Shown here: positions 301 through 30,371 of the stretch, one piece after another | How the letters are laid out: each line of letters starts with the position of its first letter | Position numbering within the stretch: the stretch's first letter is position 1 | Source: a virus | Lineage: Duplodnaviria > Heunggongvirae > Uroviricota > Caudoviricetes | DNA: 33,721 nt | Reading direction: 5' to 3' (one strand) | IMG/VR virus record: IMGVR_UViG_2671180439_000005 | The notes under the pieces: generated by a model | What the model saw: the letters and a program-made list of their open reading frames with translations, nothing else | What the model was told of the DNA's origin: nothing | Databases searched by the model: none | Translations under genes and position numbers: made by a program

Positions 301-1464
301 TCACTCATCATCTTCTGTTTCGTACTCCACATCAGAAAGCCTGACCTCAAGCTCCAAGGACGTCGTGAAGCCGCTATTATTCAGAAAATGTGTCACCTTA
401 GTGATTGTCCAGTCCTGCTCGTCTATGACGCGCTTAAAGCCTGACACTTTAACCGGTGTTTCCGTGTAAATATCTGCCCGACCGGTAGCCAGGCTGATGG
501 AGAACTCCGCAACGCCCCGTTGCAGTTTATCCCACTTCGCCTGAGCGGCGCGCATGGCCTGCGCTTTCGTGGCATATACCGTGGTCAGGGCAAAAACATT
601 GTCAGCCTCACCGGCCATATATTCACCTTCGCGCGCTTCCGGTACTTTTGGCGCTTTCTTCTGCCTGACCGGTTTCGCTTTTGGGTGCTCCAGTGCGCGC
701 AGGTGTTTTTCTTTCTTTTTGCGTTTCAGTTTTACCTTCTGCTTTTGCGGCTTCGGGTCTTTGGTGTGAAGCCACTTTGCCGTTACGCCGGTATAGGCTC
801 CACGGTCAGCAATCGCAAAATGATGACGGTCGCCGTCGCTGCGGGTGATGGTAATCTGCGGGATTTTTTTACCGCTGGCCGTCACCCCCTGCCCCGCTTT
901 GAGAAACAACAGTTTTCCCATTTTTACCGACACCTCACCGCCGTTGCGTTCTGCAAGACGGGTCAGGAATTTCGCATCAGACTCCTGCGACTGGTCGATG
1001 TGCGGGATTTTAATTCCGGCCAGTGACGGAGCGACACTGGCTTCCAGCTTGTTACGGGAGGCTATCGCCTCAACAATCGCACCGAGCGTGGTGTCATGCC
1101 AGGAGCCTTCACGGCGGGAATTGAGCGTCCCGCGGAAATCTGCACTCCGGGCGCGGATGGTAACCACATCCGGCGCGCCCCGGTGTTCAACCTCATCAAC
1201 GGTGAATTTCCCTTTGCATACCAGGGCAAAACCTTTCCAGCCGATATACACCGTCAGGACAGCGCCACGAATCGGTAGCCCGACCTGCCCGTCGGCGTCG
1301 TTCAGTTCAATATCAAGCTGGTCAGCCTCAAAGCCCCGGTTATCCGTCAGGGTCATGCTCATCAGACGGTCGCTGATATTGCCGGTAATATCCCTGCTGT
1401 CGAGCATCAGCATGTAATCCGGCGTCAGCGTACTGCCTGCATCAAATGTCAGCGCATCCAGCAT
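301..1464 (-). CDS. D: Tail protein gpD (387 aa)
   Basis: Track ORF; sequence recognisable as P2 gpD including the lysine-rich KPQKQKVKLKRKKKEK segment; start overlaps U stop (TAATG). Confidence 0.85.
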   Translation of the reverse strand: MLDALTFDAGSTLTPDYMLMLDSRDITGNISDRLMSMTLTDNRGFEADQLDIELNDADGQVGLPIRGAVLTVYIGWKGFALVCKGKFTVDEVEHRGAPDVVTIRARSADFRGTLNSRREGSWHDTTLGAIVEAIASRNKLEASVAPSLAGIKIPHIDQSQESDAKFLTRLAERNGGEVSVKMGKLLFLKAGQGVTASGKKIPQITITRSDGDRHHFAIADRGAYTGVTAKWLHTKDPKPQKQKVKLKRKKKEKHLRALEHPKAKPVRQKKAPKVPEAREGEYMAGEADNVFALTTVYATKAQAMRAAQAKWDKLQRGVAEFSISLATGRADIYTETPVKVSGFKRVIDEQDWTITKVTHFLNNSGFTTSLELEVRLSDVEYETEDDE

Positions 1465-1943
1465 TATCCCGCCTCCGTCATACCCGTGAATTTAGTCGCC
1501 ATACTGCCAGCCTTACCGATGAGCGATTCCGCCTGTTTACCGATATCGCCATAAAGCGCGGCCAGTGATTCATCAACGCGGGTGAGCGACAGCGTAAAAT
1601 CAATTTTTCGGGGTGTGCCGTCTGCAAAGAAAATACTCCCTGTTTCACTCACCTTACTGATGACATACATGCCGTAAATCATGCCGGTGCCATCCAGCAA
1701 CGGCCACGCCCGACCTTCCTCTGCCATCAGCCTGAGCGTGGTCATCGTCAGCTTGCCGCCGGTCAGTTCGGGATAAAGCACACCGGCCAGCGTGATGTTT
1801 TCCTCACCCACACCGAGAAACTGAAAGGCATCCCGTTTGCCGATACGGGAATTTGACGGCCAGCGATAATCTGATTCACGCTGCATGGTCTGGTGTGGCA
1901 GCGTCTGGCGCATAAAAACAAACATACCTAACGCGAGCATCAT
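1464..1943 (-). CDS. U: Tail protein gpU (159 aa)
   Basis: Track ORF; near-identical to P2 gpU as recalled (MMLALGMFVFMRQTLPHQTMQRESDYRWPSNSRIGKRDAFQFLGVGEE...). Confidence 0.85.
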   Translation of the reverse strand: MMLALGMFVFMRQTLPHQTMQRESDYRWPSNSRIGKRDAFQFLGVGEENITLAGVLYPELTGGKLTMTTLRLMAEEGRAWPLLDGTGMIYGMYVISKVSETGSIFFADGTPRKIDFTLSLTRVDESLAALYGDIGKQAESLIGKAGSMATKFTGMTEAG

Positions 1944-1957
1944 TTTTCGTCACCTCC

Positions 1958-4405
1958 TTAACCGTCATGCATCATGCTGGCACGGGCGCGCGCACGTTTA
2001 TCCCGCTCGTATTTTTCGAGCGCATCCTGTAACTGGCGGTCGAGCTGTGTCCCCGGCGCAGTACCACCCGTCAGGCTGATGTGATATTCGTTTTTACTCT
2101 GGTCCACATAAGAGCGGCCAGCCGGTGCCGTGACCGGCTGATAAGCCTGATAGCCTGCATAAGAGCTGGTCGCCGGAATATAACCACCGCTGCCATACGT
2201 GGCGGCTTGAGTTCTGGCGGCGGTCTGGTCAAGTGTGTCTGACTCTTTGTTGATAACACCGAGTTTTTCCAGTACCCAGTCAATACCGCTGCGCAGTTTG
2301 TTGAACGCATTAAGCGGCAGCATCAGCGCGTCAGCCAGTGCCTGCCCGAACATGACCCCCGTGTCACGGCAACTGTTCAGGGTGTCCTGAGTGGCTTTGA
2401 CCGGGGCAATCAGGTTTTTAAACCACTGCCACGCGGCCTGTAACTTTTCGCCCAGCCAGTCGAACACCGGCTTAAGTGGCGTGAACAGTTCCCCCACCGG
2501 CGCAAATGCCGCTTTCAGCCCTTCCACCACACCGCCAAAGAATGCGCTGACAGGCTCCCAGTATTTACGGATAAGCAACGCCCCGGCGACAATGGCGGCC
2601 ACCACGGCCACAACCGGCCAGCTAATCGCCCCGATGGCGGTCATAACAGCACTGCCAACCGTCGTGAAGACTGCCCCCATTGCGCCTGCTGCCGCGATGA
2701 TGGCATTGATGCCAGTGATAACCGGCCAGGCTACAAGACCAATGGCACCGATGATGCCAATAAGCGCCAGCGCGCCACCGACAATGAGGCCGATGGTTGA
2801 CGCCAGTGATTTGTTTTTCTGGATCCAGCCGTCGAGTTTTAACACATACTTTGTGGCCGTCTGCGTGAGCTTACGCAGTGCGCCTTCCTGCTGGTCAAAC
2901 AGGTCTGTCCCCACCGCCTCATAAGCGGACTGAAACTCCTTAAAGTCACCGCCGAGGTTGTCCTGCATGATATTTACCAGCTCGGCAGTCTTCCCGTCTG
3001 AGGCTTTAAACGCAGCGGTCAGTTTGTCCAGCTTTCCGGTTGAGGCGGCAGTCATCAGCACGGCGGCGGCTGAGCTGGCCTCCTCCCCGAAAATAGTTTT
3101 CATGTATTCAGCCTGCTGGGCAGTACCGAGCCGGTTTTTCTCAAAACTGGCCTGCATTTCTTTCAGAATGGTAAATATTGGCCGGGTGTTTCCCTTGCTG
3201 TCTGAGGTTTTCACGCCAAGCTCTTTGAGTGCATCCCATGCTTTTCCCGTCGGTGCCTGCAGGCGGCTTAACACGGCACGGCTTCCCGTCCCCGCCATTG
3301 AGCCTGTGATTTTTGCATCATGCAGCGCCCCGACCATTGCGGCGGTTTCTTCAATGCTGACACCGGCATTTTTTGCCACAGGTGCGGCATAGGTCAGCGC
3401 ATCGCTCATGCCGTCAAAATCGGCGGCGGTTTTGTTCATCGTCATGGAGAGAACATCCCCGATATGAGCGACCTTATCGTTTGAAAGCTGAAAGGCGGAT
3501 TTCATCCCCATCAGCAGGGCGGCGTTTTCTTCCATCGTGCGGCGGTTCGCCAGCGCCATATTCAGCGTGACCGGCGTTGCCGCCTGAATGGCATCAACAT
3601 CCCCACCCGCTTTCGCGATGATTATCTGTGCACCGGCCGCATCATCCGCCGAGGCGGCGGTATTGTCGCCGAGCTGGCGCGCCTGTTTGCGTAGTACGGT
3701 CATTTCGGCGGAGTCTTTTGCCACTCCGAGCACGGCCTGCAATTCTGAGTTTTTCTGCGCAAACTCATAACCGGGCATCAGCAGCTTAACTCCGGCCATC
3801 GTTCCCGCCGCCGCAATCCCCACACCGGCAGCGCCCACTGAGGCCATATTTCCGGCCAGTTCCTTGCCGGCCTGATAACGCTGTTTGACTGCGTTAAGTT
3901 TTGCCTGTTGTGCACTGACACGCGCCAGTGCATCGCGCTGACGGTTAAGCTGTGCGGTGGTTTCACTGATACGGTTTTTCAGCCCCTGCTCATCATGTGC
4001 AAGATTGCGGGTATTAATTCCCACAGCGGCCAGTTCCCGCTGCTGGCGCTTAACGGAATCCGTCAGGCGGTTATATTTCGCCTGTAAGTCCTCCGCCGCA
4101 CGCTTCGCGGATTCCAGCACTTTCGCCTGAGCACGTGTCGGACGTTCAGTGTTTTTAAACTGTGTGGCAAGGGCTTCGGCCTCCTGCCGTGCCTTTTCAA
4201 GTGCATGACCAGTCACGGCGAGCTGTGCGCTGGTCTTGCGAAATCCCTCAATACGGGATGCGTGACCGTTCAGCTCGCGCAGTGATTTTTGTGTTTCCCG
4301 GATATCCCCCGACAGCGACTTGCTCGCTGTGCGGATGGATTTAAACGGGCGGGATGCCTGGTCAACAGCCCTGAGCAATACCTGTAATTTTACATTGTTA
4401 CTCAT
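1958..4405 (-). CDS. T: Tail tape measure protein gpT (815 aa)
   Basis: Track ORF; long coiled-coil N-terminal half, Gly/Ala-rich hydrophobic centre; position between E/E' and U as in P2. Confidence 0.85.
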   Translation of the reverse strand: MSNNVKLQVLLRAVDQASRPFKSIRTASKSLSGDIRETQKSLRELNGHASRIEGFRKTSAQLAVTGHALEKARQEAEALATQFKNTERPTRAQAKVLESAKRAAEDLQAKYNRLTDSVKRQQRELAAVGINTRNLAHDEQGLKNRISETTAQLNRQRDALARVSAQQAKLNAVKQRYQAGKELAGNMASVGAAGVGIAAAGTMAGVKLLMPGYEFAQKNSELQAVLGVAKDSAEMTVLRKQARQLGDNTAASADDAAGAQIIIAKAGGDVDAIQAATPVTLNMALANRRTMEENAALLMGMKSAFQLSNDKVAHIGDVLSMTMNKTAADFDGMSDALTYAAPVAKNAGVSIEETAAMVGALHDAKITGSMAGTGSRAVLSRLQAPTGKAWDALKELGVKTSDSKGNTRPIFTILKEMQASFEKNRLGTAQQAEYMKTIFGEEASSAAAVLMTAASTGKLDKLTAAFKASDGKTAELVNIMQDNLGGDFKEFQSAYEAVGTDLFDQQEGALRKLTQTATKYVLKLDGWIQKNKSLASTIGLIVGGALALIGIIGAIGLVAWPVITGINAIIAAAGAMGAVFTTVGSAVMTAIGAISWPVVAVVAAIVAGALLIRKYWEPVSAFFGGVVEGLKAAFAPVGELFTPLKPVFDWLGEKLQAAWQWFKNLIAPVKATQDTLNSCRDTGVMFGQALADALMLPLNAFNKLRSGIDWVLEKLGVINKESDTLDQTAARTQAATYGSGGYIPATSSYAGYQAYQPVTAPAGRSYVDQSKNEYHISLTGGTAPGTQLDRQLQDALEKYERDKRARARASMMHDG

Positions 4406-4825
4406 TCGTGTTTCCGCTTCGCCGGAGCGCCTTTTCGCGCCATGTGATAAGTTCGGTCAGGCTCATGGGATACAGTTCTGATGGCGGCCAGTGAAATATC
4501 ACTGCCACATCCGCCATCAGGTCATCGACCGAGAGATTTTTCGGAAACGTCACTGCACCGAGTTCGGCGACAAAAAACCGACCACCTTACCGGCCAGCGC
4601 CACAAGGTCAGGCAGTTCCAGCGCGGCGACCTCCTGCTCGGTCAGCATCGGTGCCGTCATGCGCGGCAGCACTTTAATCAGTGCATCGACTTCGGAGTTT
4701 GCGACCGCAGCCAGACTGACACCGCGCAGCGTCCCGGCATTGGGTTTCATCAGCGTGACCTGTTCGATAACCTGCTCACCACGCTTGACCGGATTGTCCA
4801 GGGTAATCACATTTTCTTTGTTCAT
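4398..4825 (-). CDS. E+E': Tail assembly chaperone E+E' made by programmed -1 ribosomal frameshift (about 142 aa)
   Basis: Slippery T_TTT_TTG on the minus strand (plus 4571-4577) in the GFL codons of E; -1 frame continues FVAELGAVTFPKNLSVDDLMADVAVIFHWPPSELYPMSLTELITWREKALRRSGNTNE to TAA at 4398-4400, overlapping the T start at 4405; same architecture as P2 E/E+E'. Confidence 0.7.
4550..4825 (-). CDS. E: Tail assembly chaperone gpE (91 aa)
   Basis: Track ORF; matches P2 gpE; contains slippery heptamer near its 3' end. Confidence 0.8.
   Translation of the reverse strand: MNKENVITLDNPVKRGEQVIEQVTLMKPNAGTLRGVSLAAVANSEVDALIKVLPRMTAPMLTEQEVAALELPDLVALAGKVVGFLSPNSVQ
4571..4577 (-). promoter_or_regulatory. 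-1 frameshift slippery site for E+E'
   Basis: Plus-strand caaaaaa = minus-strand TTTTTTG in the X_XXY_YYZ register of the E reading frame. Confidence 0.65.
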
Positions 4826-4881
4826 GGTTTTCTCACTTCTGAATCAGGGTTAACCGGTCAGCCTGGCTGACCGGATGAAAA

Positions 4882-5400
4882 TCACAGGCCGATATTGCGG
4901 CGGTGTTGCTCCAGCCGGTCGGCGCCGTTCACCTTCTCAATCATGTTGATGGTGTCGATTTCGACCAGCTCCTTACCGTCCATCGTCAGCCGGAAATAGG
5001 TGCAGACCACGGAAATTTTCGACTCGGTGTCTTCTCCCTGTTTACCCTCGCCGGTGTCGATTTCTTTCTGACGTCCACGCATGACCACCTCGACGGCTAC
5101 CGTTTCGCCGGTATCGTCGCGCTGGTAAGAGCCTGCAAAACGAATCGGCACAGCATCCACACCGGTTGCGGCGTAAAGCTCCCAGATAACCGAATCCGGG
5201 AAGCCCCCGAGCGACCACTCCATTGACAGCGCATCGTCATCAAGGCCGAGGTCTACCGGTGCGCTTCCGTTCATCCCCGCACCGCGATAGTTTTCGAGTT
5301 TACGGGTCAGTTTTGGCAGCGTGACGGACTTTGCAACGCCCTGATAGCTGTAGCCGTTCAGAAAGACGTTCATTAACTTGAGTTTGCGCGGCATTGCCAT
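4882..5400 (-). CDS. FII: Tail tube protein gpFII (172 aa)
   Basis: Track ORF; sequence recognisable as P2 FII; same length as P2. Confidence 0.85.
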   Translation of the reverse strand: MAMPRKLKLMNVFLNGYSYQGVAKSVTLPKLTRKLENYRGAGMNGSAPVDLGLDDDALSMEWSLGGFPDSVIWELYAATGVDAVPIRFAGSYQRDDTGETVAVEVVMRGRQKEIDTGEGKQGEDTESKISVVCTYFRLTMDGKELVEIDTINMIEKVNGADRLEQHRRNIGL

Positions 5401-5412
5401 CGGTCAGGCTCC

Positions 5413-6603
5413 TTAATTGCTGTTAACCGAAGTGACCAGATTTGCCAGGTATTTATCGGTAATACGCTGGCGCAGGGTCAGGTTTTCGAGAGGAGGCACC
5501 GGTGTATAGTCGTAGTCGATATACAGTTTTCCGGCCTTGAGGGTTTCCGCATCATTGGATTCTTCGCTGAACCAGCAGGTCGCATCCACGATATAGCCGT
5601 TTGTTTTCAGCTCACGGAATTTGGCATTGATGCCGTCAACGATGTCGCGAATCAGCGTTGCGGTGATGGGCTTGTCCACCGCCCACATGTGCGCCTCAGC
5701 CATCGTGTCGGCCAGCACCTGCGCGGTGCGGGTGTAGTTTTCAAAGAGGAACAGCGGGTCATCAGAGCAGGTACGGTTACCCCAGAAGCGGAAACCGTCG
5801 CGGCGAATCAGCGTTGTGACGCCTGACTCGTTAAGCAGGTCAGCATCGGTGCCGGACTCCTGCAAATCCCAGAATACAGAGGCGCTGATGCCGGTAACAC
5901 CGTTCACCCCGACGTTGGACAGCGTTTTATGCCAGCCCTGCTCCTGGTCGATTTTAGCGCGCAGACCCAGCGCACGGGCGGTGGCATACGCGGTGGCGGT
6001 GGTACTGGTGACCGTATCCCATGCGAGGAAATCCGGCCAGATGACCATCAGCTCACGCTGGCTGAAATTCTGGCGGTAGGCTTTCACCTCGGAAATGGTC
6101 TTACATCCCCATGCGCTGATATACCCGAAAGCACGCAGCTTCTGACAGACTGATGCCAGTGCAACAGCCACCTCTTTGGTATCCAGTCCCGGCACGCCGA
6201 GAATACGCGGTTTTACACCGGTTACCGACTCCGCCGCCAGCAGGGCTTTCAGTCCGGTGTACTGACCGTTTTCGTCGGTGGTGCCGATGATATTGGAAAC
6301 GGTCTGCGCGAGTTTCGTTTCTTCGTCTTCGCCGGTGCCGTCTTCCACACGCACGACAACGGTGACCGGTTTTGACTGGTCGGCGATGGCCTGTAACGAT
6401 GCCGCCAGCGTGCCTTTTTTACCGGCCTTCGCAATTGCGCTCTGCACATTGGTAATCAGCACCGGTTTATTGAGGGGGAAGGTTTCCGCATCTGCATCGC
6501 TGGCCGTGCAGACCATGCCGACAATGGCCGTGGATACGGTGGAAATGACGCGGGTGCCGTCGTTAATCTCCAGCACCTGCACGCCATGATGATAGTCACT
6601 CAT
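5413..6603 (-). CDS. FI: Contractile tail sheath protein gpFI (396 aa)
   Basis: Track ORF; sequence recognisable as P2 FI; same length as P2. Confidence 0.85.
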   Translation of the reverse strand: MSDYHHGVQVLEINDGTRVISTVSTAIVGMVCTASDADAETFPLNKPVLITNVQSAIAKAGKKGTLAASLQAIADQSKPVTVVVRVEDGTGEDEETKLAQTVSNIIGTTDENGQYTGLKALLAAESVTGVKPRILGVPGLDTKEVAVALASVCQKLRAFGYISAWGCKTISEVKAYRQNFSQRELMVIWPDFLAWDTVTSTTATAYATARALGLRAKIDQEQGWHKTLSNVGVNGVTGISASVFWDLQESGTDADLLNESGVTTLIRRDGFRFWGNRTCSDDPLFLFENYTRTAQVLADTMAEAHMWAVDKPITATLIRDIVDGINAKFRELKTNGYIVDATCWFSEESNDAETLKAGKLYIDYDYTPVPPLENLTLRQRITDKYLANLVTSVNSN

Positions 6604-6863
6604 CCGTTTAACTCCGTGGTTAATGGGTGCAACTATTTTCTGTTGGGCAGTGCATGAGACGCTATTTGACCTGGCTGGTCAGTGGATGAAACAACAGATA
6701 AAGAAAAGGCGGGCAATCAGCTTGCCTGCCTTGATTTGTACTCTCTCTGTTTCCAACTGACAAATTACGTAACCAAAATTCTGTCAAATCTGACAGCCTG
6801 TTTTGAGCGAAGAGCGGACCTGAGATTGTGGTATGCTAATTTATGGGGAGCAGGTCAATTGTA

Positions 6864-7556
6864 TTAGTTATCTTTTTGCTTTTCTTTATCCCATTTCTTT
6901 GCAGTGGTCTGATACCACTCTTCACGTGCTCGTTGTTCCTCGGCTCTGTCACTTGAATTATAGTTGTCTGTTTTAATTTTTTTGCTTCCCTGGGAAATCG
7001 GCCTCCAGTCTTCTCTAATCTTTTTCATCTGCTCAGCTATCTGTGTCATTGGACTCCTTGCACCTAAGTAGCTAACCCCCTCGAAAGAAGCCATATCATA
7101 AGAATACTCATTCCGCTCTCTTTCAGTTGAGCCCGGCTGTTTAGACCAGCTAATACTAACAGAATAAACTTGATCTTTAATCTGGTCATACTTACAAAGA
7201 CTGCTGTTAAGGGAATGGCCGTTTTTCAATACGCTAACCTTGCTAAATGGTATACCTTCATTTTTTCTATGTTCTGCATTAACCAGTGGGGGATTAAATC
7301 CGACTTCAATATCATAGGCTGGGGCATTTCCGGTATTAGCAATATTGATATCAAAATAAAAAGCAGCCCAAGAATTTGGTTCAAGAGTCACAACGACATG
7401 AGGTTGAACTGATGCGTCAACCATCCTTTTTGTCTCGTCTGCTAATAGCCTTGTTACTCTCCACAAGAAAAATGTAGCAACTGCTGTTAGCAATGCTGCC
7501 AAAGCTGAGATAAGTGTACTTACTGTGTTTATATGCTCTGCGATAAATTCGATCAT
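6864..7556 (-). CDS. Hypothetical protein, 230 aa, single N-terminal TM anchor, Lys/Glu-rich C-terminus (cargo)
   Basis: Track ORF with ATG start and AGGA RBS 6 nt upstream; hydrophobic segment INTVSTLISALAALLTAVATFFLW; AT-rich; no P2 counterpart known to me. Confidence 0.55.
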   Translation of the reverse strand: MIEFIAEHINTVSTLISALAALLTAVATFFLWRVTRLLADETKRMVDASVQPHVVVTLEPNSWAAFYFDINIANTGNAPAYDIEVGFNPPLVNAEHRKNEGIPFSKVSVLKNGHSLNSSLCKYDQIKDQVYSVSISWSKQPGSTERERNEYSYDMASFEGVSYLGARSPMTQIAEQMKKIREDWRPISQGSKKIKTDNYNSSDRAEEQRAREEWYQTTAKKWDKEKQKDN

Positions 7557-8047
7557 AAGTTGTCCTTGGGGGCGTACTAATTGTTTTCAATACTAAAATA
7601 ACGCCGGGCTTGAAAAATTGCACACTTATGGTTCGATTTACCTCAACAGTTAAGGCTTCAACTTCCCCCATGCACCTCACCCAGCCCAAGACTGTATGAG
7701 GTCTGACAAAGAACTTCCTGACACTTGAAAACGAGGCAACGGCTAGGGTTTCTCGTAGGGCAAGGATTGAATACGAAGCCTGTATATTGCTCCGCGAACG
7801 CTGCTGAGGGCAGTTTAAATGTTGGGCGTTTATGTAGCCTTTCACTCACCAGCATGAGTTCAATGTCTGTGAGTTACCGACAACAATATAAAGGGGGTGA
7901 CATCATCATATATCCAAGCTAGAGTCAAATCCTATAACTGGTTTTATGATCAGTGTCAATTGTTTGATTATTGAACGTTTACGAAGCAGCACGGGAGCCA
8001 TATAACTAATGGGCAGGTATAAGCCTGTATCACGAGGAATCAGTAAA

Positions 8048-8227
8048 ATGGCTGATGATAAGACCAAAATCGGTACCCCTGACAATGATTTAATAAGTAT
8101 CAAACAGGATTACGAGAGACGTGATTGGGCTGAAAAGTTTGGAGTTAGCGAGGCCAAACTTGTTCAAGCCGTACAGGCTGTAGGTCATTCGGCTAAGAAA
8201 GTACAGGCATGGCTTAAAGACCATTAA
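8048..8227 (+). CDS. DUF3606-like small protein (59 aa from MADDK; track ORF begins at 8009) (cargo)
   Basis: Pattern MADDKTKIG..DYERRDWAEKFGVSEAKLVQAVQAVGHSAKKVQAWL resembles DUF3606 members as I recall them; GAGGA 9 nt upstream of ATG 8048; hairpin plus T-run directly downstream. Confidence 0.5.
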   Translation: MADDKTKIGTPDNDLISIKQDYERRDWAEKFGVSEAKLVQAVQAVGHSAKKVQAWLKDH

Positions 8228-8233
8228 TATATG

Positions 8234-8260
8234 AGCGCCTTTCTAGGCGCTTTTTTCTTT
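8234..8260 (+). terminator. Rho-independent terminator or attenuator after the DUF3606 gene
   Basis: agcgcc-tttcta-ggcgct stem-loop followed by ttttttcttt. Confidence 0.55.
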
Positions 8261-8279
8261 GTCCTTTGGGAGATGATTT

Positions 8280-8558
8280 ATGGCTAATAATTTATTTATT
8301 ACTTACGACCTCATTAAAACGAAAGATTATGCGGCTGTGTATGATGCAATTAAATCTTTAGGAAATTGGGCTTTAACAACTGAATCGAACTGGTATGTTA
8401 ACTGTAGTTACTCTGCCGAGGATGCAGCCAAAATTGTGAGGGCGGTCATGGATAGTGATGATAAGCTTATTGTTGTAGACGCAACCAATAACTCAGCTTA
8501 TTGGTACAATCTCTCAGATGAAGTTAGTAACCAAATTCTGACTGAGTGGAACAAGTAA
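8280..8558 (+). CDS. Hypothetical protein, 92 aa (cargo)
   Basis: Track ORF with ATG and GGGAG RBS 7 nt upstream; followed by a strong GC-stem terminator; no family recognised. Confidence 0.5.
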   Translation: MANNLFITYDLIKTKDYAAVYDAIKSLGNWALTTESNWYVNCSYSAEDAAKIVRAVMDSDDKLIVVDATNNSAYWYNLSDEVSNQILTEWNK

Positions 8559-8587
8559 TTAAAGGGGGTGGGTACCCCCCTTTAATT
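8557..8587. terminator. Bidirectional rho-independent terminator between convergent cargo genes
   Basis: aattaaaggggg-tgggtac-ccccctttaatt inverted repeat with U-rich flank on both strands. Confidence 0.6.
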
Positions 8588-9032
8588 CAGAAACTATCAT
8601 GATTGAAACATTAAATATACTGGGTTAATTCTTTCATCCTTGCTCCCTTGCTATATGTCCTGAAAGCGTCCTTTTTAGCCTTCTGCTCAGTATGTCCGGT
8701 AATGGCACGCAGCGGACATTGCTGGCTGAGTTGAGGGTCCGCTGTGAGCGAGGAGCGGAAGTTCAAAATTTTTCATAACGACTGATGAGAACAACACTAA
8801 TTTTCGAACTTACTGGTACAAAAAATTTCCATAATCTTATAAAAAGTGGGGGAGTCAGTATGGTTCAATATTTGAAATACTACTTGTTTATGTTGAGAAA
8901 ATTTTAAGCTTGACCTGGTTACCAGATTACAGCCGATCAACACCTAGACATCGAAACTTAGAGGTACCTCTGCTTTCAGGCATACTTAGAGGTCTATGTC
9001 TAAACCACCCGCTATGCAGGTGGTTGATTTAC

Positions 9033-10568
9033 CTAATTCGGCCTTGCTTGAATAGCAGACTCTATAGCTGCTCGGAATTCCGGGGCATCAGCTCTTAATC
9101 GATAATCATCAAGGGTATTGAATATTTCTAGAAGTTCTCTACGATAATGCGGCGGTGCTGAATTACCTTCGCCTCTAGTGGTGAAAATTAATAATGAGTC
9201 AGCGACGTCTTTTAATTTTTTATTCCTTTTCAATCTAATATAACAAGATACAACTATATCAAGAATATGTTTTCTAGATTTCAAGGTGAGTTTTTTATTA
9301 GGCATAACCAACTGCAGCATAGCACCAAGTAATTTGGTAGCCTCTTTTGAAATATAATGAAGATCGAAATTATCTATTTCTTTATTTTCTTGAGGAATCT
9401 CCTTTTCATCTATCCATTCGCATTGTTCTGCCCAATCTGTAGCGACGCTAAATAAATGACAGAGAAGGAAGTGAAAAGGTGTTTCCCATTCACCACTATA
9501 TTCATCCGATTGCCTATTCATATTCTTTATAATTTTCCTTGCAAAATATGAATAGTAATGCAACCATAAATGATACTGAAGACCCTGGTGAATACCTTCA
9601 TGAACCATAATTTCAAACAGCGTGACACCTGAGTAAATAGGACATTTATATTTTGAAGCATCGTAATAGGAACCTAAAGACTTATTAAGTGCAGCAATAA
9701 TTTTTTCATCTTCATCTAACCTCCAGTAGAGATAGTCACCGATATCACGGTATATTGCTAAATCAGCTGCAAACTTAGCATTGGAAAAGAAAAAATGTAA
9801 TATACGGTTGTTTTTTGGAATCAATAAACGATGTCCTCGACTAACGTTAAGATTATTTTTAAGCTCAACATATAGACGACTGTTAGGTGAACCAAGTAAT
9901 GCACTGATAAAATTAGAAGTAAAGTCAGAACGAACTATTGGCTCGATCTTGATTAACTCAAGGCAGAGGGATGGGTGCGCAAGTGCAAAGTGATTGGTAA
10001 GTTCAGGTGATGAGACAATATTTAACAATGCTTCATGTGCATGTTCAGCAGCTGTCTCGCGATTAGAGATGCGGAGATTGTTAGCTATCTTATCACAAAG
10101 TCGATTCTTCACAGGTCTATCAATTATTGATATTAATTTTTCTAGTTGAGGTGCCAACAATTGTGCCAGATCGTCGTATCGTTTAGTAAGGTGCAAATTT
10201 TCCACTAACTCTAGAAATATCCCTGTTCTTCCAATTGAGAGTTTAGGGTTTTTTAAGCGAAATAAAATGTAAATAGCAACTGCGAGTGATATCAGGTATA
10301 CGGCACTTGAACTATCTAATCCCCATTTCCAGGGGCCAAAGCTAAAATATAAGTCTAGTGATTTTAAAGCCGGTGCAAACACCAAATAATTGCTTAGTAA
10401 GAATGCAAACCCAACAATTACCCAATCCCACCACGCTAGGCAGAACCTTAAACGTAGTCGAGCGTTTGGCGTAATAAGGGCCCATACAGCAGCAATAACG
10501 CCCAATATGGTAAGTAGACTTGATGTATCAATTTTGGTTGGCGGTGTCATAATTTCTCTTGTAATCAT
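9033..10568 (-). CDS. Hypothetical membrane protein, 511 aa, three N-terminal TM helices plus large helical soluble domain (cargo)
   Basis: Track ORF with ATG start; hydrophobic segments at about aa 17-32, 42-64 and 86-103; about 35% GC; alternative start at Met7; no family recognised. Confidence 0.6.
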   Translation of the reverse strand: MITREIMTPPTKIDTSSLLTILGVIAAVWALITPNARLRLRFCLAWWDWVIVGFAFLLSNYLVFAPALKSLDLYFSFGPWKWGLDSSSAVYLISLAVAIYILFRLKNPKLSIGRTGIFLELVENLHLTKRYDDLAQLLAPQLEKLISIIDRPVKNRLCDKIANNLRISNRETAAEHAHEALLNIVSSPELTNHFALAHPSLCLELIKIEPIVRSDFTSNFISALLGSPNSRLYVELKNNLNVSRGHRLLIPKNNRILHFFFSNAKFAADLAIYRDIGDYLYWRLDEDEKIIAALNKSLGSYYDASKYKCPIYSGVTLFEIMVHEGIHQGLQYHLWLHYYSYFARKIIKNMNRQSDEYSGEWETPFHFLLCHLFSVATDWAEQCEWIDEKEIPQENKEIDNFDLHYISKEATKLLGAMLQLVMPNKKLTLKSRKHILDIVVSCYIRLKRNKKLKDVADSLLIFTTRGEGNSAPPHYRRELLEIFNTLDDYRLRADAPEFRAAIESAIQARPN

Positions 10569-10925
10569 TGTTTGATGTACATCGGAATGGTTTCAAATGA
10601 TAAGGCTCTGTGTATGATAAATCAGAACGTTATGCACGTTTAAGAATACCCTCAAAATGGCACATTTTAATCTAAAAATGGCATTAAATGGACACTACTT
10701 GTCCACACAAGTTTTTTTTCAGTCGGCTTTTCCCGACTAACGTTTGGGGTGTCCTATTGAAACTACGCTCCTTATAAAAGCAATACTGTAGCTGTATGTT
10801 TATCAAAGGGGTTGTGCTAACCAAATTACTGAAGCCTAAGGTCCGCTCTTGGCACAGAGCGGACTGTCAGATTAGGCTTTACTCTGTGCCATAGATATGT
10901 AATCTCACACCAGAGCTTATACAAC

Positions 10926-11453
10926 TTATTGCGGCATTTCCGGCCATTCAGGATTTGCAGGATCCACACGACTGACCAGAACGCTGTAGCGTTCCCAGAT
11001 CTCCAGCCGTGTGCGCTCCTCATCTGTTGCCATGTTCAGTCTGACCGCGCGCTCCAGCGGCAAAATCACGGATTCAGCATCTGCTAGAAGTCTGGCTTTC
11101 CGATTTTCTGCCTGCTGCTGCAATTCCTCCGCCGTATAAATTCGTTTAATCACTGTGCCGTCCTTAAACATCCAGTTCCCTGAAATGTCCGCCCGTCGGT
11201 TAGCGGTAATATCCGGCACTTCAACAACACTTAATCCATCTGGTCTGATAGCTGTCACATCCTTTTCCACATAGCGGATAATATTATCTTTGTCGTACGC
11301 TATTTTTATCGTGTCATCAGCAAAATACTTTTGTTCTTCGTACCAGTTCTTACCATCTTCTGAAAAAAACCAGACAACATCAAAACCCTTTGTCAATTGA
11401 TATTGTTCAACCGTTTTTGGATTACCCGCCGTAATATTTTTTAAATGCTGCAT
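10926..11453 (-). CDS. G: Tail fibre assembly protein gpG (175 aa)
   Basis: Track ORF; recognisable as P2 gpG; directly downstream of H. Confidence 0.8.
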
Positions 11454-11456
11454 AAA

Positions 11457-13586
11457 TTATACCTGTGCCACGTTATACCATGTCCCGTTAATGTATTTCT
11501 GAACCGGTCTGTAATATACGCCACCAATGTTATCGGCAGAGTTTGAGCCGGTATCCTGAACAATAATGCCGGAATATATACACCCGGACGGTGCCTGATG
11601 TGTCCATGTCATGCCATTGTTCGCAGGTTTGTATGTGGCAGCACCACCAAGCCGGATATCCCGGACATAGCGGGAATCAAAGTTACCGTAATCTGTGGGA
11701 TTAACACGCCCCGTAATATTTATGGTTTTATTACTTTGAATGCTACCGGAGACAAAGCGCATAACATGGACGTTATTAGCATAAACATCCAGATTACCGT
11801 CGCCATTTTGTTTAAAGCCCGTGTCATTATCACCCAAAACAATCGAGTTACCGCCAAGAGCACTGGATGTACCGATGCCCAGTGCACCATTCAATTGACC
11901 TCCAGATAATGATAACGCCCCAACATCAGCAGCAGTCGGTTTAATGTGCGAACTGTAAATTACATATACAGTTCCATCTGTCAGGCCTGTTGGTTTATTC
12001 GCTGTATAAGTTGGTGATGTATGAATCGTTACGCTGGCGTTACTGGTATAATCCCACTGAATATTAACACCTGTGGCGTAATTACCTATTTCAACATAAA
12101 CATCATAGGTATCACCGGATGTATTCACCCATGCAAAATTAGTAAATCCAACCGATGTCCGTCGCCATAACGCACCAGTAAGACCTTTTGGATTTCTATT
12201 CCCCGCACGAAGAACAAGTTCAGATATACCAGCCTGCATAGGGGAGTTAACATTATATCCGGCACCACCAATCAGACTTATGTAAACCACGGAACTGGCC
12301 TGTGGCATGGTTACAGTTGCCAGCCTGAACCATCCTGTACCACCACTAAAAGACATGGTTGTTGAATTTGTTGCTCCAATATTGCGCAGGAATAATCTTT
12401 TATCAGGAATATCCGCGCCATTTTGATCTTTCTGAAGACGTTTTTCAGCATTGTCATAGGCAGACTTCACCGCTTTTGGTGTTGCGGCCAGCGTTTCCGA
12501 ATCACTGTTGGTGGCGCTACTGAGCTGAACAAGCCCTTTTCGCGCTGTGGTGGCATCCTGTGCAGTGTATTTCCCGTTAGCAAGGTCATACGCGACCTTT
12601 ACCGCCTTTGGCGTTGCCGCAAGCGTTTCAGAATCACTGTTGGTGGCGCTACTGAGCTGGACAAGGCCTTTTCTCGCTGTGGTGGCGTCCTGTGCAGTGT
12701 ATTTCCCGTTAGCAAGGTCATACGCGACCTTTACCGCCTTTGGCGTTGCGGCCAGCGTTTCAGAATCGCTGTTGGTGGCGCTACTGAGCTGAACAAGGCC
12801 TTTTCGCGCTGTGGTGGCGTCCTGTGCGGTATATTTCCCGTTAGCAAGGTCATATGCTGCTTTTACCGCTTTTGGTGTTGCAGCGAGCGTTTCAGACGTG
12901 CTGTTGGTGGCGCTACTGAGCTGGACAAGGCCTTTTCGTGCTGTGGTGGCGTCCTGTGCGGTATATTTCCCGTTAGCAAGGTCATATGCGGCCTTTACCG
13001 CCTTTGGCGTTGCAGCCAGTGTTTCAGACGTGCTGTTGGTCGCACTGCTTAACTGAGTAAAACCTTTTGCGGTCAGCGAGGCGTCCGGGTGACGTCGTGA
13101 CTGTTCATGTTCTGCAATTTTGTCATCAACGTAATCCTGCGTCGCCATCACCGTTGTGGTGTCAATGGTCAGCGCCACTGAGGTCACACTGCTGACGATG
13201 ATGACCATACGGCAGGTCTGCGAACGCCCTGAGCCTTCGGCAAGAGCTGGCTTATAACTTTCGGCCATGTTCGCCACAGCAATTAACGTTCCCGCATCAT
13301 CGTACAGGCCAAGCTCACGCATCCAGAAACCGCCCACCTCCGGCGGAATAACCAGCTCTGCGATAATATAATTACTGTTTCGTTTGTCCTGGCTGATTTT
13401 GTTCAGCGCATGTCGCCAGACTTCGTGGATAAGCCCGGTCTGTCCGGCATCCGGGACAGGCAATTTACCACCGCCATCCCCGACGGCCATCGTGGTAATG
13501 TTGACCTTCCGCCCTCCCGGTGCGGTTGCCGCTGCCAGCTTTGCTGCACCGGCAGTGGTGATAACGGTTCTGAATTTTGTGCTCAT
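11457..13586 (-). CDS. H: Tail fibre protein gpH (709 aa) with internal tandem fibre repeats
   Basis: Track ORF; N-terminus matches P2 H; five copies of a 44-aa repeat KGLVQLSSATNS(T/D)SETLAATPKAVKxAYDLANGKYTAQDATTAR. Confidence 0.85.
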   Translation of the reverse strand: MSTKFRTVITTAGAAKLAAATAPGGRKVNITTMAVGDGGGKLPVPDAGQTGLIHEVWRHALNKISQDKRNSNYIIAELVIPPEVGGFWMRELGLYDDAGTLIAVANMAESYKPALAEGSGRSQTCRMVIIVSSVTSVALTIDTTTVMATQDYVDDKIAEHEQSRRHPDASLTAKGFTQLSSATNSTSETLAATPKAVKAAYDLANGKYTAQDATTARKGLVQLSSATNSTSETLAATPKAVKAAYDLANGKYTAQDATTARKGLVQLSSATNSDSETLAATPKAVKVAYDLANGKYTAQDATTARKGLVQLSSATNSDSETLAATPKAVKVAYDLANGKYTAQDATTARKGLVQLSSATNSDSETLAATPKAVKSAYDNAEKRLQKDQNGADIPDKRLFLRNIGATNSTTMSFSGGTGWFRLATVTMPQASSVVYISLIGGAGYNVNSPMQAGISELVLRAGNRNPKGLTGALWRRTSVGFTNFAWVNTSGDTYDVYVEIGNYATGVNIQWDYTSNASVTIHTSPTYTANKPTGLTDGTVYVIYSSHIKPTAADVGALSLSGGQLNGALGIGTSSALGGNSIVLGDNDTGFKQNGDGNLDVYANNVHVMRFVSGSIQSNKTINITGRVNPTDYGNFDSRYVRDIRLGGAATYKPANNGMTWTHQAPSGCIYSGIIVQDTGSNSADNIGGVYYRPVQKYINGTWYNVAQV
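12456..13067 (-). repeat. In-frame tandem repeat, 132-bp unit, about 4.6 copies, inside tail fibre gene H
   Basis: Near-identical 132-nt units visible in the DNA; plus-strand track ORFs 12547..12792 and 12811..13056 are mirror artefacts of the repeat. Confidence 0.8.
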
Positions 13587-16102: not shown

Positions 16103-16145
16103 GATTACTTAACTGGCAAAAAAACATCCTCACTAATTGGAGCCA

Positions 16146-17237
16146 ATGGATACACGCATGTCAGACATTCTAATTACTTATGATGAACGGAAAGATAAAT
16201 TTGAGTCCTATGCCCTTACTCTTAAATCGTTATTAACCACGTTAATTCGCAATGAAAAAATTTCAATTCACTCACTTGAATCAAGAGTTAAAACAAAAAA
16301 AAGCCTTGAAGGTAAGATTAATAAAAAGGGAAAATACAAGTCTATAGATGATATTACTGATATCGTTGGTATCAGGATCATCACACATTATGCTGATGAT
16401 GTTGATAAGATAGCTGCTATAGTTGAAAAGGAGTTCACCATTGACCAAGAGAACTCTATTGATAAAAGAACCTCAATTGCGCCTGATAAATTTGGTTACC
16501 TATCACTTCATTATATAGTAACTTTAAACTCAACCAGAACAAACTTAAAAGAATATGAAGTATATAAAAACATCAAAGCCGAATTACAAATACGATCAAT
16601 CCTTCAGCATGCCTGGGCGGAGATTGAACACGACATTGGTTATAAGTCGGCCACAGGACTGCCTAATGAAATAAGAAGATACTTTTCACGCTTAGCTGGT
16701 CTTTTAGAAATGGCCGATGATGAATTTATTAAAATCAGAAAAAAGATTTCTGAACGGCAGAAAGAGGTTGCAAAAGAACTAGAGCAAGGAACTAGTGATT
16801 CAGTTTTAGATATTTTCACTTTGGATGAATTCTTAAACACAAGTCGAGTTATGAGTGAACTTTCAGAAGAGATAAAAGAAAAAACAGGAATCACAGTACA
16901 TGGCCGATACAAGGATAAAGATTTGGGATACCTACTAAATGGTTTAAACCTAGCCAACATAACTACAATAGAACAACTCAATCAAAAACTCTCACAAATG
17001 AAAAAGCAGATAGTAGATAGAATATTCTGCTTCGGAGAACCATTTATTAATTATTACAGAGAAACCACCATGCCAAAAGAAGCTCTTTTGAGTTATTTAT
17101 GTCAAATTATCGTTGCGTTTCAAAACTCACCTTCGTTAGAATCTGAATTTAATAACAAAGCAGGTTTAAATCTGAAAAACAGAGATATCTCCGATTTTTT
17201 CTCGAATATAAGAGAAAACATAAGCACACAACCTTAG
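16146..17237 (+). CDS. Fused toxic small alarmone synthetase-like protein (RelA/SpoT nucleotidyltransferase N-domain plus C-terminal regulatory domain), CapRel-like (cargo)
   Basis: Synthetase motifs SRVKTKKSLEGK, DITDIVGIRIITHY, YLSLHYIV, ELQIRSILQHAWAEIEHDIGYK; about 363 aa from ATG 16146 (track ORF starts at TTG 16137); AT-rich, opposite strand to flanking late genes. Confidence 0.7.
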   Translation: MDTRMSDILITYDERKDKFESYALTLKSLLTTLIRNEKISIHSLESRVKTKKSLEGKINKKGKYKSIDDITDIVGIRIITHYADDVDKIAAIVEKEFTIDQENSIDKRTSIAPDKFGYLSLHYIVTLNSTRTNLKEYEVYKNIKAELQIRSILQHAWAEIEHDIGYKSATGLPNEIRRYFSRLAGLLEMADDEFIKIRKKISERQKEVAKELEQGTSDSVLDIFTLDEFLNTSRVMSELSEEIKEKTGITVHGRYKDKDLGYLLNGLNLANITTIEQLNQKLSQMKKQIVDRIFCFGEPFINYYRETTMPKEALLSYLCQIIVAFQNSPSLESEFNNKAGLNLKNRDISDFFSNIRENISTQP

Positions 17238-26901: not shown

Positions 26902-27831
26902 TCAAACCAGGCTTTTGCCTTGCTTCATTTTTTTAGATGAGTCTAAAAATTTGAAATTATCATTAGATGAAAATATTCTTTCTGCGGTATGCCGAATGAC
27001 TGAAGTATTGAAGACCGCAGCCTGCTCCTCATTACAACTGAATACACCCTCATGACCATCAAACTCGCCCGCCAAAAGAAGGTTTTTTGATACTGGGAAC
27101 AAAACTAAAGTGTCTTTTACACCAAACCCGGGGGAATAAGGGCCTCGTGCTAATTCAGGATTAGTCCACATTAAGCAAACTGGGTTATCTGAAGTTATAA
27201 ATGACCCTTGCCCATCAGATATGGTCATAAGTGACCAGTTGCGTTGATGCAACAACTTGGTGATAACAGGTACACATTTCATTTCCATATCTATCATGAA
27301 CTCTCTGATTACATTGATTTCGAAATTATCCCCATCCACAAAATTTTTAATTTTTTCGTAAGCGAGATCATATGGCAAAGACTCACCCATTTCTTTCTCA
27401 TAAGCTAATTTGCAATCGTCCCAACGCTCAGCCGAACTAACTGAGGATTTCATGATAAACTTTGCTATTTGTTTCAATGGAGATGATAAATGTTCTCGCT
27501 GAGCAGGCGTACGTATTGCCAATAAGGAAATAAACTCCAGAATAACATCTTTGGTTTCGCCTGAAAACTCGCCCCCCTCCTCAAGTTTTCTTAAATGAGT
27601 AGCGACACTGCCTTCAAACTCTGCAAGAGAACTCTCGAGATAGTTTGGGTCAACTCCATCCAATTCTAATCGGTTGAAATCTCTAACCCCCCCGACATTG
27701 CGAGTATTACTCTCAAAGGTTTTGCGCTCCTTTAAATCTATTACAGTTAATTTTGATTTTTTCCCCCCATTACTTGTAAACCCTTTCAAATAACATTGGG
27801 ATAAAAAATGATGATGCCTTGCAACACTCAT
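26902..27831 (-). CDS. DUF4238-family protein (309 aa from ATG; cargo at the tin/old slot)
   Basis: N-terminal HHHFLSQCYLKGF signature typical of DUF4238 as I recall it; ATG at Met15 of the track ORF with GGAG RBS (the track start is GTG); AT-rich. Confidence 0.6.
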   Translation of the reverse strand: MSVARHHHFLSQCYLKGFTSNGGKKSKLTVIDLKERKTFESNTRNVGGVRDFNRLELDGVDPNYLESSLAEFEGSVATHLRKLEEGGEFSGETKDVILEFISLLAIRTPAQREHLSSPLKQIAKFIMKSSVSSAERWDDCKLAYEKEMGESLPYDLAYEKIKNFVDGDNFEINVIREFMIDMEMKCVPVITKLLHQRNWSLMTISDGQGSFITSDNPVCLMWTNPELARGPYSPGFGVKDTLVLFPVSKNLLLAGEFDGHEGVFSCNEEQAAVFNTSVIRHTAERIFSSNDNFKFLDSSKKMKQGKSLV

Positions 27832-27934
27832 ACTCAGCTCCGTTATGGCTATAATCGCATAAATAATAAGCACTTATATTGCAATCATCTAGTTAAATAC
27901 ACAATATTTATGACTCCGAAATTTCATTAAATCA

Positions 27935-30106: not shown

Positions 30107-30371
30107 ATGAGCCAAAAGCCTCTGAACAACGCTTGCTGAGTTGCTCAACCTGCGCGTTTAAATCAGCAAAAGACTTTGCGCTTCCGGTCAGAATATCGTG
30201 ATGCATCAGGCCGGAAACAAGCTGGCTTAATTTCGGGTAATAACCAACCACCGCCAGCCATTCCTGACCGGCGTTTTTACCGCTTTCAGCTCTCTTTTTC
30301 TCGTGGAGAATAAACTGAAAGCTGTCACTGGTAACGACATAACGTTCGCCAATTTCAATACGAATACTCAT
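30096..30371 (-). CDS. Hypothetical early-operon protein (91 aa)
   Basis: Track ORF with ATG start; translationally coupled to neighbours; in the block of small ORFs P2 carries between B and A. Confidence 0.55.
   Translation of the reverse strand: MSIRIEIGERYVVTSDSFQFILHEKKRAESGKNAGQEWLAVVGYYPKLSQLVSGLMHHDILTGSAKSFADLNAQVEQLSKRCSEAFGSYGR

Follow-up and report, generated by a model that had tools for sequence, protein, structure and literature searches.

The accessory slot between FI and G

The DNA analyzed here, IMG/VR virus record IMGVR_UViG_2671180439_000005 (33,721 nucleotides, referred to below as the window), is a P2-like prophage with an accessory slot at positions 6604-10925, between the tail sheath gene FI and the tail fiber assembly gene G, both on the minus strand. 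An earlier note on this DNA had placed the slot at the P2 Z/fun accessory position, and the flanking genes and RefSeq relatives confirm this assignment: the cargo stands between G and FI, and the pF promoter sequence is conserved on the FI side. Four genes occupy the slot, encoding proteins of 230, 59 (DUF3606), 92 and 505 amino acids (aa; Table 1). We propose that two gene cassettes, each mobile in its own right and exchanged at boundary elements, probably stand in tandem in the slot, and that its genes make up three independent accessory units.

GC content is 0.35-0.46 across 6501-11000, compared with 0.54-0.60 in the FI-side backbone (1001-6500); it is also low, at 0.43-0.46, in the G/H region past the slot (11001-12500). 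The 4.3-kb AT-rich cargo described in the earlier note thus stands with respect to its low GC and its four open reading frames (ORFs), but not with respect to its full length, as the outer ~200 and ~85 bases of 6604-10925 are, judging by their conservation, backbone rather than cargo. Positions 6604-6819 are matched in about 1100 E. coli genomes, positions 6401-6819 are retained in other P2-like prophages irrespective of their cargo, and 10841-10925, on the side of the V operon end, is likewise conserved. The cargo proper spans ~6823-10840. Over 4.8 kb, the public draft assembly GCA_001268805.1 is 100% identical to the arrangement seen here, which is therefore not an assembly oddity of the window.

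The earlier note could assign the four ORFs to no P2 protein or known defense family, and the searches agree: apart from DUF3606, whose assignment holds (gathering cut-off 24.3 bits), none has a PADLOC, NCBIfam or Pfam match. The best hits of the four proteins in PADLOC-DB 2.0.0 have E-values of 0.019 (Cas2_II) and 0.027 (PDC-M03B), with nothing for the 230-aa and 505-aa proteins; none is in an NCBIfam family or, DUF3606 apart, in a PHROG-annotated one, and searches of PDB sequences with the four proteins and a 92-aa family profile gave nothing usable. Homology to P2 Fun(Z), which the earlier note had named as an outcome that would count against its proposal, was not detected: hhalign against Fun(Z) (NP_046777, 528 aa) gives probabilities of 0.3% for the 505-aa family profile and 0.2% for the 230-aa family profile, both below 1%. 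A literature search by protein accessions and palindrome sequences found no paper. The description of the cargo as undescribed is apt in that no defense model matches, but its left half had been sequenced before, as the Z region of P2-EC53 (2004) and of R18C (2019).

That the slot contains several transcription units, with hairpin/T-run terminators, had also been noted, and terminator-like hairpins do follow both the DUF3606 gene and the 92-aa gene. The region between the divergent 230-aa and DUF3606 genes is presumed to hold the promoters of both; it contains one promoter-like site (7897-7925, plus strand). An Rfam search of the slot returned chance-level matches only. Each of the three independent cargo units, namely the 505-aa gene, the DUF3606/92-aa pair and the 230-aa gene, would have its own promoter and terminator and would presumably be expressed from the prophage.

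Table 1. Genes, cassettes and boundary elements in and around the FI-G slot of the window
Feature	Positions	Strand	Basis or remarks
FI, tail sheath	5413-6603	-	ORF; annotated 'phage tail sheath protein' in near-identical prophages (RefSeq)
Backbone upstream of FI	6604-6798	-	Position matches the P2 pF late promoter and activator site (P2 annotation)
Terminator-like hairpin in FI-upstream backbone	6706-6732	-	Predicted to stop minus-strand transcription arriving from the cargo
Left element of cassette A, 'GAGCG' type	6799-6822		Degenerate, only right arm GAGCGGAC intact; inverted repeat with 10836-10873
Cassette A (230 aa, DUF3606, 92 aa)	6804-8718		blastn end points in other backgrounds
230-aa gene	6864-7556	-	ORF; phrog_11802; no Pfam, PADLOC or NCBIfam match
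Intergenic region between divergent 230-aa and DUF3606 genes	7557-8047		No gene called in RefSeq relatives; no Rfam match
DUF3606 protein gene, 59 aa	8048-8227	+	PF12244, E 4e-18, 65.3 bits, profile positions 1-54/54; start as in RefSeq
Terminator-like hairpin and T run between DUF3606 and 92-aa genes	8233-8252	+	
92-aa gene	8280-8558	+	
Perfect 12-bp inverted repeat after 92-aa gene	8557-8588		Terminator-like on both strands
'GGCAC' element, right end of A and outer left end of B	8694-8717		P2-EC53 match breaks at 8717 and resumes at 10841; lambdoid copies of B begin at 8695
Cassette B (505 aa)	8695-10862		blastn end points in other backgrounds
'GAGCG' element, left end of B	8737-8760		CE0032f island copy begins at 8736; alignment and scans
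505-aa gene	9033-10550	-	ORF extends to 10568 (511 aa); three hydrophobic segments
'GGCAC' element, right end of B	10841-10864		62 nt from the G stop codon
G, tail fiber assembly	10926-11453	-	ORF; RefSeq names in relatives

Separate distributions of the two halves

Among 5426 complete E. coli genomes surveyed by megablast, 99 carry the whole of the left part (6830-8740) and 75 the whole of the right part (8741-10835), whereas none of the genomes, and no phage record, covers at least 80% of the slot, and cassettes A and B are never adjacent in those genomes. Each half has its own set of backgrounds. By pairwise blastn, phage P2-EC53 (AJ512682) corresponds to window positions 6574-8717 fused to 10841-10955, and the Z regions of P2-EC53 and R18C (MN016939) are 97.5-98% identical to the window over these two segments; non-P2 viral contigs match 6804-8718 at 96.5% identity. 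On the other side, the CE0032f island matches 8736-10871 (99.4% identity) and lambdoid prophages match 8695-10862 (99.8%). These lambdoid prophages, located at the gal-bio site (ybhB-bioA side), encode an identical 505-aa protein directly after a tail fiber assembly gene, so that their right end is a second home of cassette B. Cassette B is also carried by phage-plasmids and is found in non-P2 islands, one copy adjoining a restriction endonuclease gene; in other P2 slots it is paired with a different, 244-aa gene. Within cassette A, the DUF3606/92-aa pair occurs without the 230-aa gene beside DUF6538-type integrases in hundreds of enterobacterial contigs, and places where the 230-aa gene occurs on its own include Xanthomonas and the tRNA-Leu island of EPEC E2348/69.

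These distributions bear directly on the view, taken in the earlier note, that the four genes act jointly as one defense or superinfection-exclusion system. All four do lie in one hotspot, none has an assigned function, and their exact arrangement is present in at least one public genome. However, we reject this view because the parts have separate distributions: they occur apart far more often than together, cassette B has its 244-aa partner in the same slot elsewhere and stands alone in lambdoid prophages and islands, and a pair of palindromes lies between the halves. Moreover, a hotspot island typically carries a number of transcription units that are unrelated to one another (Egorov et al., bioRxiv 10.1101/2024.10.15.618418). 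A single four-gene system is thus very unlikely.

The 244-aa protein encoded next to the 505-aa gene in place of cassette A (locus L014, 2183-2917, E. coli H9Ecoli; locus L002, 3442-4176) has weak, sub-threshold matches to GIY-YIG nucleases (E 0.025 and 0.067) and no PADLOC match.

Palindromes at the cassette ends

The ends of the cassettes are 24-nt palindromes with arms GTCCGCT/AGCGGAC and two types of loop, 'GGCAC' and 'GAGCG'. Each consists of an 8-nt arm, an 8-nt loop and an 8-nt arm, the arms being identical over 7-8 nt in both loop types. The order within a unit is GAGCG element, cargo, GGCAC element, and successive units are joined by a GGCAC element, 19 nt and a GAGCG element. The right-hand element of cassette B folds into a 9-bp hairpin (-9.8 kcal/mol). 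The left element of cassette A forms no hairpin on folding, and intact GAGCG copies are present at the equivalent left position in other slots (L202, L203, L014). The record of P2-EC53 annotates flanking 'inverted repeat' features.

When the junction between the two cassettes (8688-8768) is folded as single-stranded DNA, the first palindrome's right arm pairs over the 19-nt spacer with the second palindrome's left arm (-14.7 kcal/mol, z -2.7); because the arms pair in this way, the junction can form an alternative, larger hairpin. A 51-aa ORF (8611-8766, minus strand) crosses the palindrome junction and is annotated in no relative; it is probably not a gene, and we treat it as spurious. The 81-nt junction is matched in 818 of the 5426 E. 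coli genomes and in 125 plasmids of Klebsiella, Pantoea, Enterobacter, Citrobacter and others, and all but one of the matches listed fall in unannotated intergenic DNA.

The same palindromes bound other cargo. In P2 Z slots they enclose a DUF5677 gene with a recombinase, an S1 peptidase, and the 244-aa gene with the 505-aa gene. They also bound the second cassette of the EC974 island and units in the CFT073/Nissle island, an E. coli 042 cryptic prophage and an NDM plasmid, and they stand at the ends of several units in a Yersinia enterocolitica chromosome, including those of a unit with putAbiC and a 533-aa homologue of the 505-aa protein. A strict scan for the palindromes was negative over 137 kb of control loci that had been fetched for different purposes and over the 29 kb of the window that lie outside the slot. 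A genome-wide search with the pattern GTCCGCTC-N6-10-GAGCGGAC was abandoned as too generic, as it matched unrelated GC-rich hairpins in every phylum.

Two of these loci are described further here. In Y. enterocolitica (GCA_028999045.1; L025, 3841-14272), at least five elements divide DUF6500, a LysE exporter, putAbiC with the 533-aa homologue, and other genes, a run that looks like a cassette array outside any prophage. In CFT073 (L212, NZ_CP058222.1 4110425-4129027), elements lie at L212 positions 1157, 6877, 6919, 7933 and 11145. The palindrome-bounded units of CFT073 (L212), Nissle (L209) and ST131 (L211) hold a TonB-receptor/ABC iron-uptake operon, an ETEC_3214-family gene, a 200-aa tyrosine recombinase and hypothetical genes, and adjoin a dynamin-family/RdcB/patatin cluster.

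A small recombinase and the proposed exchange of cassettes

One P2 Z-slot cargo includes a 194-aa tyrosine recombinase that is 92% identical to the 200-aa 'site-specific integrase' (WP_001305361.1) of the CFT073, Nissle and ST131 islands, where the gene sits inside the hairpin-bounded units. The recombinase gene is present in 863 of the 5426 E. coli genomes, and its product consists of a catalytic domain only (Pfam Phage_integrase, 5e-19; Xer and integron-integrase models far below cut-off). Among four loci chosen by the recombinase alone, three have 3-5 elements within 9 kb. The arm-loop-arm layout of the palindromes is that of a tyrosine-recombinase core site, from which we infer that such an enzyme could act on them. 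Cassettes would be swapped by recombination at the palindromes, in an exchange between two non-identical sites, and the agent of this exchange may be either short homology or the ~200-aa tyrosine recombinase carried in such cassettes elsewhere. Given the two loop types, exchange without deletion would be possible. Site-specific recombination is said to have been proposed for the P2 Z region by Nilsson and co-workers in 2004.

Another possibility is that the palindromes are simply terminators or insulators kept with each moron, and that exchange occurs by ordinary homologous recombination in the flanking phage genes, dedicated sites and a recombinase playing no part. We regard this as a serious alternative, if one that falls short of probable. 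A promoter and a terminator classically flank morons, the P2 record annotates a putative V operon terminator downstream of G, and the right element in this window does fold as a hairpin, yet neither strand of the palindromes has a T run. In most of the DNA that carries the elements, this window included, no recombinase is close by; nevertheless, the elements cluster around the small tyrosine recombinase in loci picked without regard to them. Against this alternative also stand the recurrence of the cassettes, with unchanged end points, in P2-like, lambdoid, island and plasmid backgrounds that share no flanking genes, and the fixed order in which the two loop types alternate at junctions.

Several observations weigh against the proposal that the slot is an array of mobile cassettes exchanged at these palindromes. 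At up to one mismatch per arm, the Wphi and TOE3 slots have no element, and the P2, SMEK and P22H1 slots have a single one; because the scan missed some P2 slots in this manner, the palindromes are common but not universal, or often degenerate. The left element of the window is itself degenerate, the window lacks the recombinase, and of the four loci chosen by that enzyme one has no clear element. The palindromes might also be terminators or insulators common to the units, with short homology as an incidental result. With regard to the cargo, no PADLOC 2.0 model fits the four proteins, and a phage-resistance role would be putative for any of them.

A stronger form of the two-cassette proposal, possible but held here only tentatively, is that the paired GGCAC/GAGCG palindromes are heterospecific sites of an undescribed cassette-exchange system served by the cassette-borne ~200-aa recombinase, and that the 505-aa protein represents a new single-gene antiviral family. 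If this is true, single accessory or defense units of Enterobacterales shuttle among prophages of the P2-like and lambdoid types, integrative islands and plasmids, and the window is a two-cassette array produced by that system. It would also explain how unrelated mobile elements exchange genes, for which a mechanism is missing according to recent surveys of P2/P4 hotspots. One such survey, from 2026, leaves the route of defense genes between P2 and unrelated elements unresolved and makes no mention of such palindromic elements (PMC13586616).

The 505-aa protein of cassette B

The gene of cassette B had been read as encoding a 511-aa protein with three N-terminal transmembrane helices. The three hydrophobic segments are present, but the protein most likely starts at the second ATG (10550) and is 505 aa long, because its homologues and the RefSeq entries start there. 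Hydrophobicity and charge predict an N-out topology with three transmembrane helices and a cytoplasmic domain of ~400 residues, which is modeled as an all-alpha solenoid. A fold search with the model found no relationship to any described defense protein. The family comprises at least 155 close homologues and at least 830 representative clusters of ~500-600 aa in Gamma- and Betaproteobacteria; its genes are always solitary, and no member has a Pfam domain or a name.

Polar positions invariant across the family are S230, E235, H333, E360 and D487, together with N239, N254 and N295. Among the 43 close homologues (at least 40% identity), H323, E324, H327 and H333 are invariant or nearly so, and form the motif HEGIHQGLQxH. 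This motif would be compatible with a membrane-bound zinc metalloprotease comparable to the Lit protease. However, it is restricted to the close subfamily: HExxH is present in 11 of 136 full-length representatives, with only H333 conserved, and the predicted fold is an alpha-solenoid and not a zincin. We therefore rejected the protease candidate as highly improbable.

The genomic neighbors of the family include recognized defense genes. In E. coli lambdoid prophages (L194-L201, 5689-9885 of each locus), the 505-aa gene adjoins a convergent pair encoding an AAA_15/21 ATPase (395 aa) and an HNH protein (248 aa), which looks like a Septu-like system. Family members lie next to putAbiC in Yersinia and next to a Lamassu-type LmuB_C/DUF3800 cluster in Delftia, and a Pseudomonas relative lies in an integrase island with HNH and Vsr genes. 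Based on this context, the 505-aa protein is the best candidate in the slot for a single-gene phage-exclusion or abortive-infection protein at the inner membrane. The Gifsy-prophage defense protein GiPD474 was also checked and is an unrelated ATPase.

The proteins of cassette A

The 230-aa protein corresponds to 'ORF1, putative lysogenic conversion protein' of the P2-EC53 record, deposited in 2004. Its description as membrane-anchored is borne out by a single hydrophobic segment at residues 9-34, and by the positive-inside rule the bulk of the protein is predicted to be cytoplasmic. The membrane helix and the adjoining stretch are strongly conserved and are followed by a domain with an NTGNA-x-A motif, which appears beta-rich when read by eye, and by a charged C-terminal tail. 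A constant partner gene was sought and discarded, the small upstream ORFs of the Xanthomonas and Klebsiella loci being unrelated.

The model of the 92-aa protein (pLDDT 94.6) is a ferredoxin fold of the Cas2/VapD type, which on predicted fold places the protein in the Cas2/VapD superfamily. Family members are very constant in length and share an invariant N-terminus, MANNLF-x-YDL. Residues Y9-D10-L11 are invariant in 32 homologues; strand 1 of the model comprises residues 3-10, with Asp10 at its C-terminal end. The role of the strand-1 Asp in Cas2, VapD and BPSL1038 has been described (PMC10491678). The PF09827 profile scores 12.7 bits against the protein, compared with a gathering threshold of 23.8; 15 of the 32 members give sub-threshold matches (best E 0.013), and a 92-aa profile search of PDB sequences found no Cas2. 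The model suggests that the protein is likely a small nuclease or nucleic-acid binder.

The DUF3606/92-aa pair is conserved in one island family. Among 39 viral loci of the 92-aa gene, 21 have DUF3606; in the other 18, the neighbors are varied or there is no small gene. By these counts DUF3606 is a frequent, evidently non-obligatory upstream partner. This bears on the idea that the pair is a toxin-antitoxin or addiction module with the 92-aa protein as toxin, or that the 92-aa protein is a Cas2 look-alike that blocks CRISPR adaptation. The genes are small and co-directional, and the terminator after the upstream gene would lower expression of the second. The Cas2/VapD-like fold, in which an Asp is conserved at the position that is catalytic in Cas2, points in the same direction, as does the conservation of the pair beside integrases in many enterobacterial islands; VapD is itself the toxin of a toxin-antitoxin pair and BPSL1038 is a DNase (PMC10491678). 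However, a toxin with a dedicated antitoxin should not tolerate the absence of DUF3606 seen in 18 of the 39 loci, and the protein has no sequence-level membership in Cas2/VapD and no PDB relative by sequence. We consider these roles unlikely.

Possible antiviral and other roles for the cargo

A defense role is plausible for the 505-aa gene, and it is for that gene alone that gene context strengthens the case; for the 92-aa/DUF3606 unit such a role is possible, and for the 230-aa gene it is unsupported. The cargo might instead consist of genes for lysogenic conversion or host fitness, with the two membrane proteins serving, for instance, in the envelope or in stress, or of selfish passengers of the cassette system. 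The lysogenic-conversion annotation of P2-EC53 ORF1 is consistent with this, as are the contents of hairpin-bounded units elsewhere, which include the TonB-receptor/ABC iron-uptake operon and the LysE exporter, and the 230-aa gene lacks defense neighbors in the loci seen. Nevertheless, we find a non-antiviral cargo rather unlikely, because the 505-aa family repeatedly adjoins recognized defense genes in unrelated genera, and fun(Z), the type gene of the slot, blocks T5 (P2 record note). In addition, 16% of the known defense systems in P2 prophages lie within the tail genes, in a hotspot placed downstream of GpL (PMC13586616).

Other accessory genes in the window

Two further loci in the window carry candidate accessory genes. 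A 323-aa protein (26902-27873, minus strand), encoded in a low-GC stretch (27000-28000), matches PADLOC DUF4238-Pers nearly end to end (E 1.8e-219) and Pfam DUF4238 (5e-39); its gene adjoins a 737-aa ORF (27935-30148). By position this may be the classical P2 old/tin hotspot, which would give the prophage a recognized candidate defense gene. A 366-aa protein (16137-17237, plus strand; GC 0.34) has an N-terminal RelA/SpoT domain (Pfam 1.9e-21) and matches the PADLOC candidate PDC-S33 (1e-16). In an identical public contig its gene adjoins the baseplate gene V, where the third moron slot (orf30) was described for R18C. We take its size and layout to recall fused toxic small alarmone synthetases such as CapRel. 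The tail fiber protein H (11457-13586, minus strand) contains five tandem copies of ~43 residues (…KGxxQLSSATNSxSETLAATPKAVKxAYDLANGKYTAQDATTA…), and the strand opposite H has matching repeated ORFs at 12423-13056.

Implications

The island as such is not new, because this hotspot was already known and half of what it contains here had been sequenced twenty years earlier. Of most interest are the seams: in mobile elements unrelated to one another, cassette ends are marked by one family of 24-nt palindromes, in many cases with a recombinase nearby. The occurrence of these palindromes at cargo ends in two unrelated prophage types, islands and plasmids, and their clustering near a small tyrosine recombinase, provide a concrete, testable hypothesis for how defense genes may move. 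The slot also holds a caution for screens by guilt by association, since the cassettes stacked in one hotspot island can be unrelated, here with seams visible to the base. Two candidate families should be carried forward, namely the 505-aa membrane-anchored solenoid and the 92-aa protein of predicted Cas2/VapD fold, which is common in phages and islands.

Comparison with known systems

The slot agrees with the P2 Z/fun hotspot in its position between G and FI, in its nonessential, AT-rich, presumably prophage-expressed cargo and in being a recognized hypervariable hotspot. It differs in that P2 Fun(Z) has no detectable relationship to the 505-aa and 230-aa families and in that two cassettes are stacked here. 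The Z regions of P2-EC53 (Nilsson et al., 2004, PMID 12949155) and R18C (PMC6823313) share the 230-aa ORF1, DUF3606 and 92-aa genes with the window but lack cassette B, and no function was assigned in either. The authors of R18C called only two short ORFs in the fun(Z) locus, noting the DUF3606 annotation and finding no function (PMC6823313).

At the level of the proteins, the 92-aa protein differs from Cas2, VapD and BPSL1038 in having no significant sequence match to them, and no Cas1 gene or CRISPR array lies near its gene. The DNase BPSL1038 is the closest structure by identity (PMC10491678), but its D(X20)SST motif is not reproduced in the 92-aa protein, whose conserved residues are D10 and S36. 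The 505-aa protein resembles single-gene membrane-anchored exclusion and abortive-infection proteins (transmembrane effectors; Rousset et al., 2022, PMC9122126) in being encoded by a solitary prophage or island gene, in its N-terminal anchor and in its occurrence in variable regions beside defense genes, whereas it has no sequence or fold relationship to any described defense protein.

With respect to the array itself, possible parallels are the attC cassettes of integrons and the pdif modules of Acinetobacter. The elements here are only 24 nt long and of two loop types, whereas attC sites are longer than this, and there is neither an IntI-type integrase nor a fixed platform; the associated recombinase, at ~200 aa, consists of no more than a catalytic domain, and any action that it has on the elements is putative. 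What the arrays share with integron cassettes and pdif modules is their organization into cargo units, with or without a promoter, that are arranged head to tail between short imperfect palindromes, their movement among unrelated replicons and their tie to a tyrosine recombinase.

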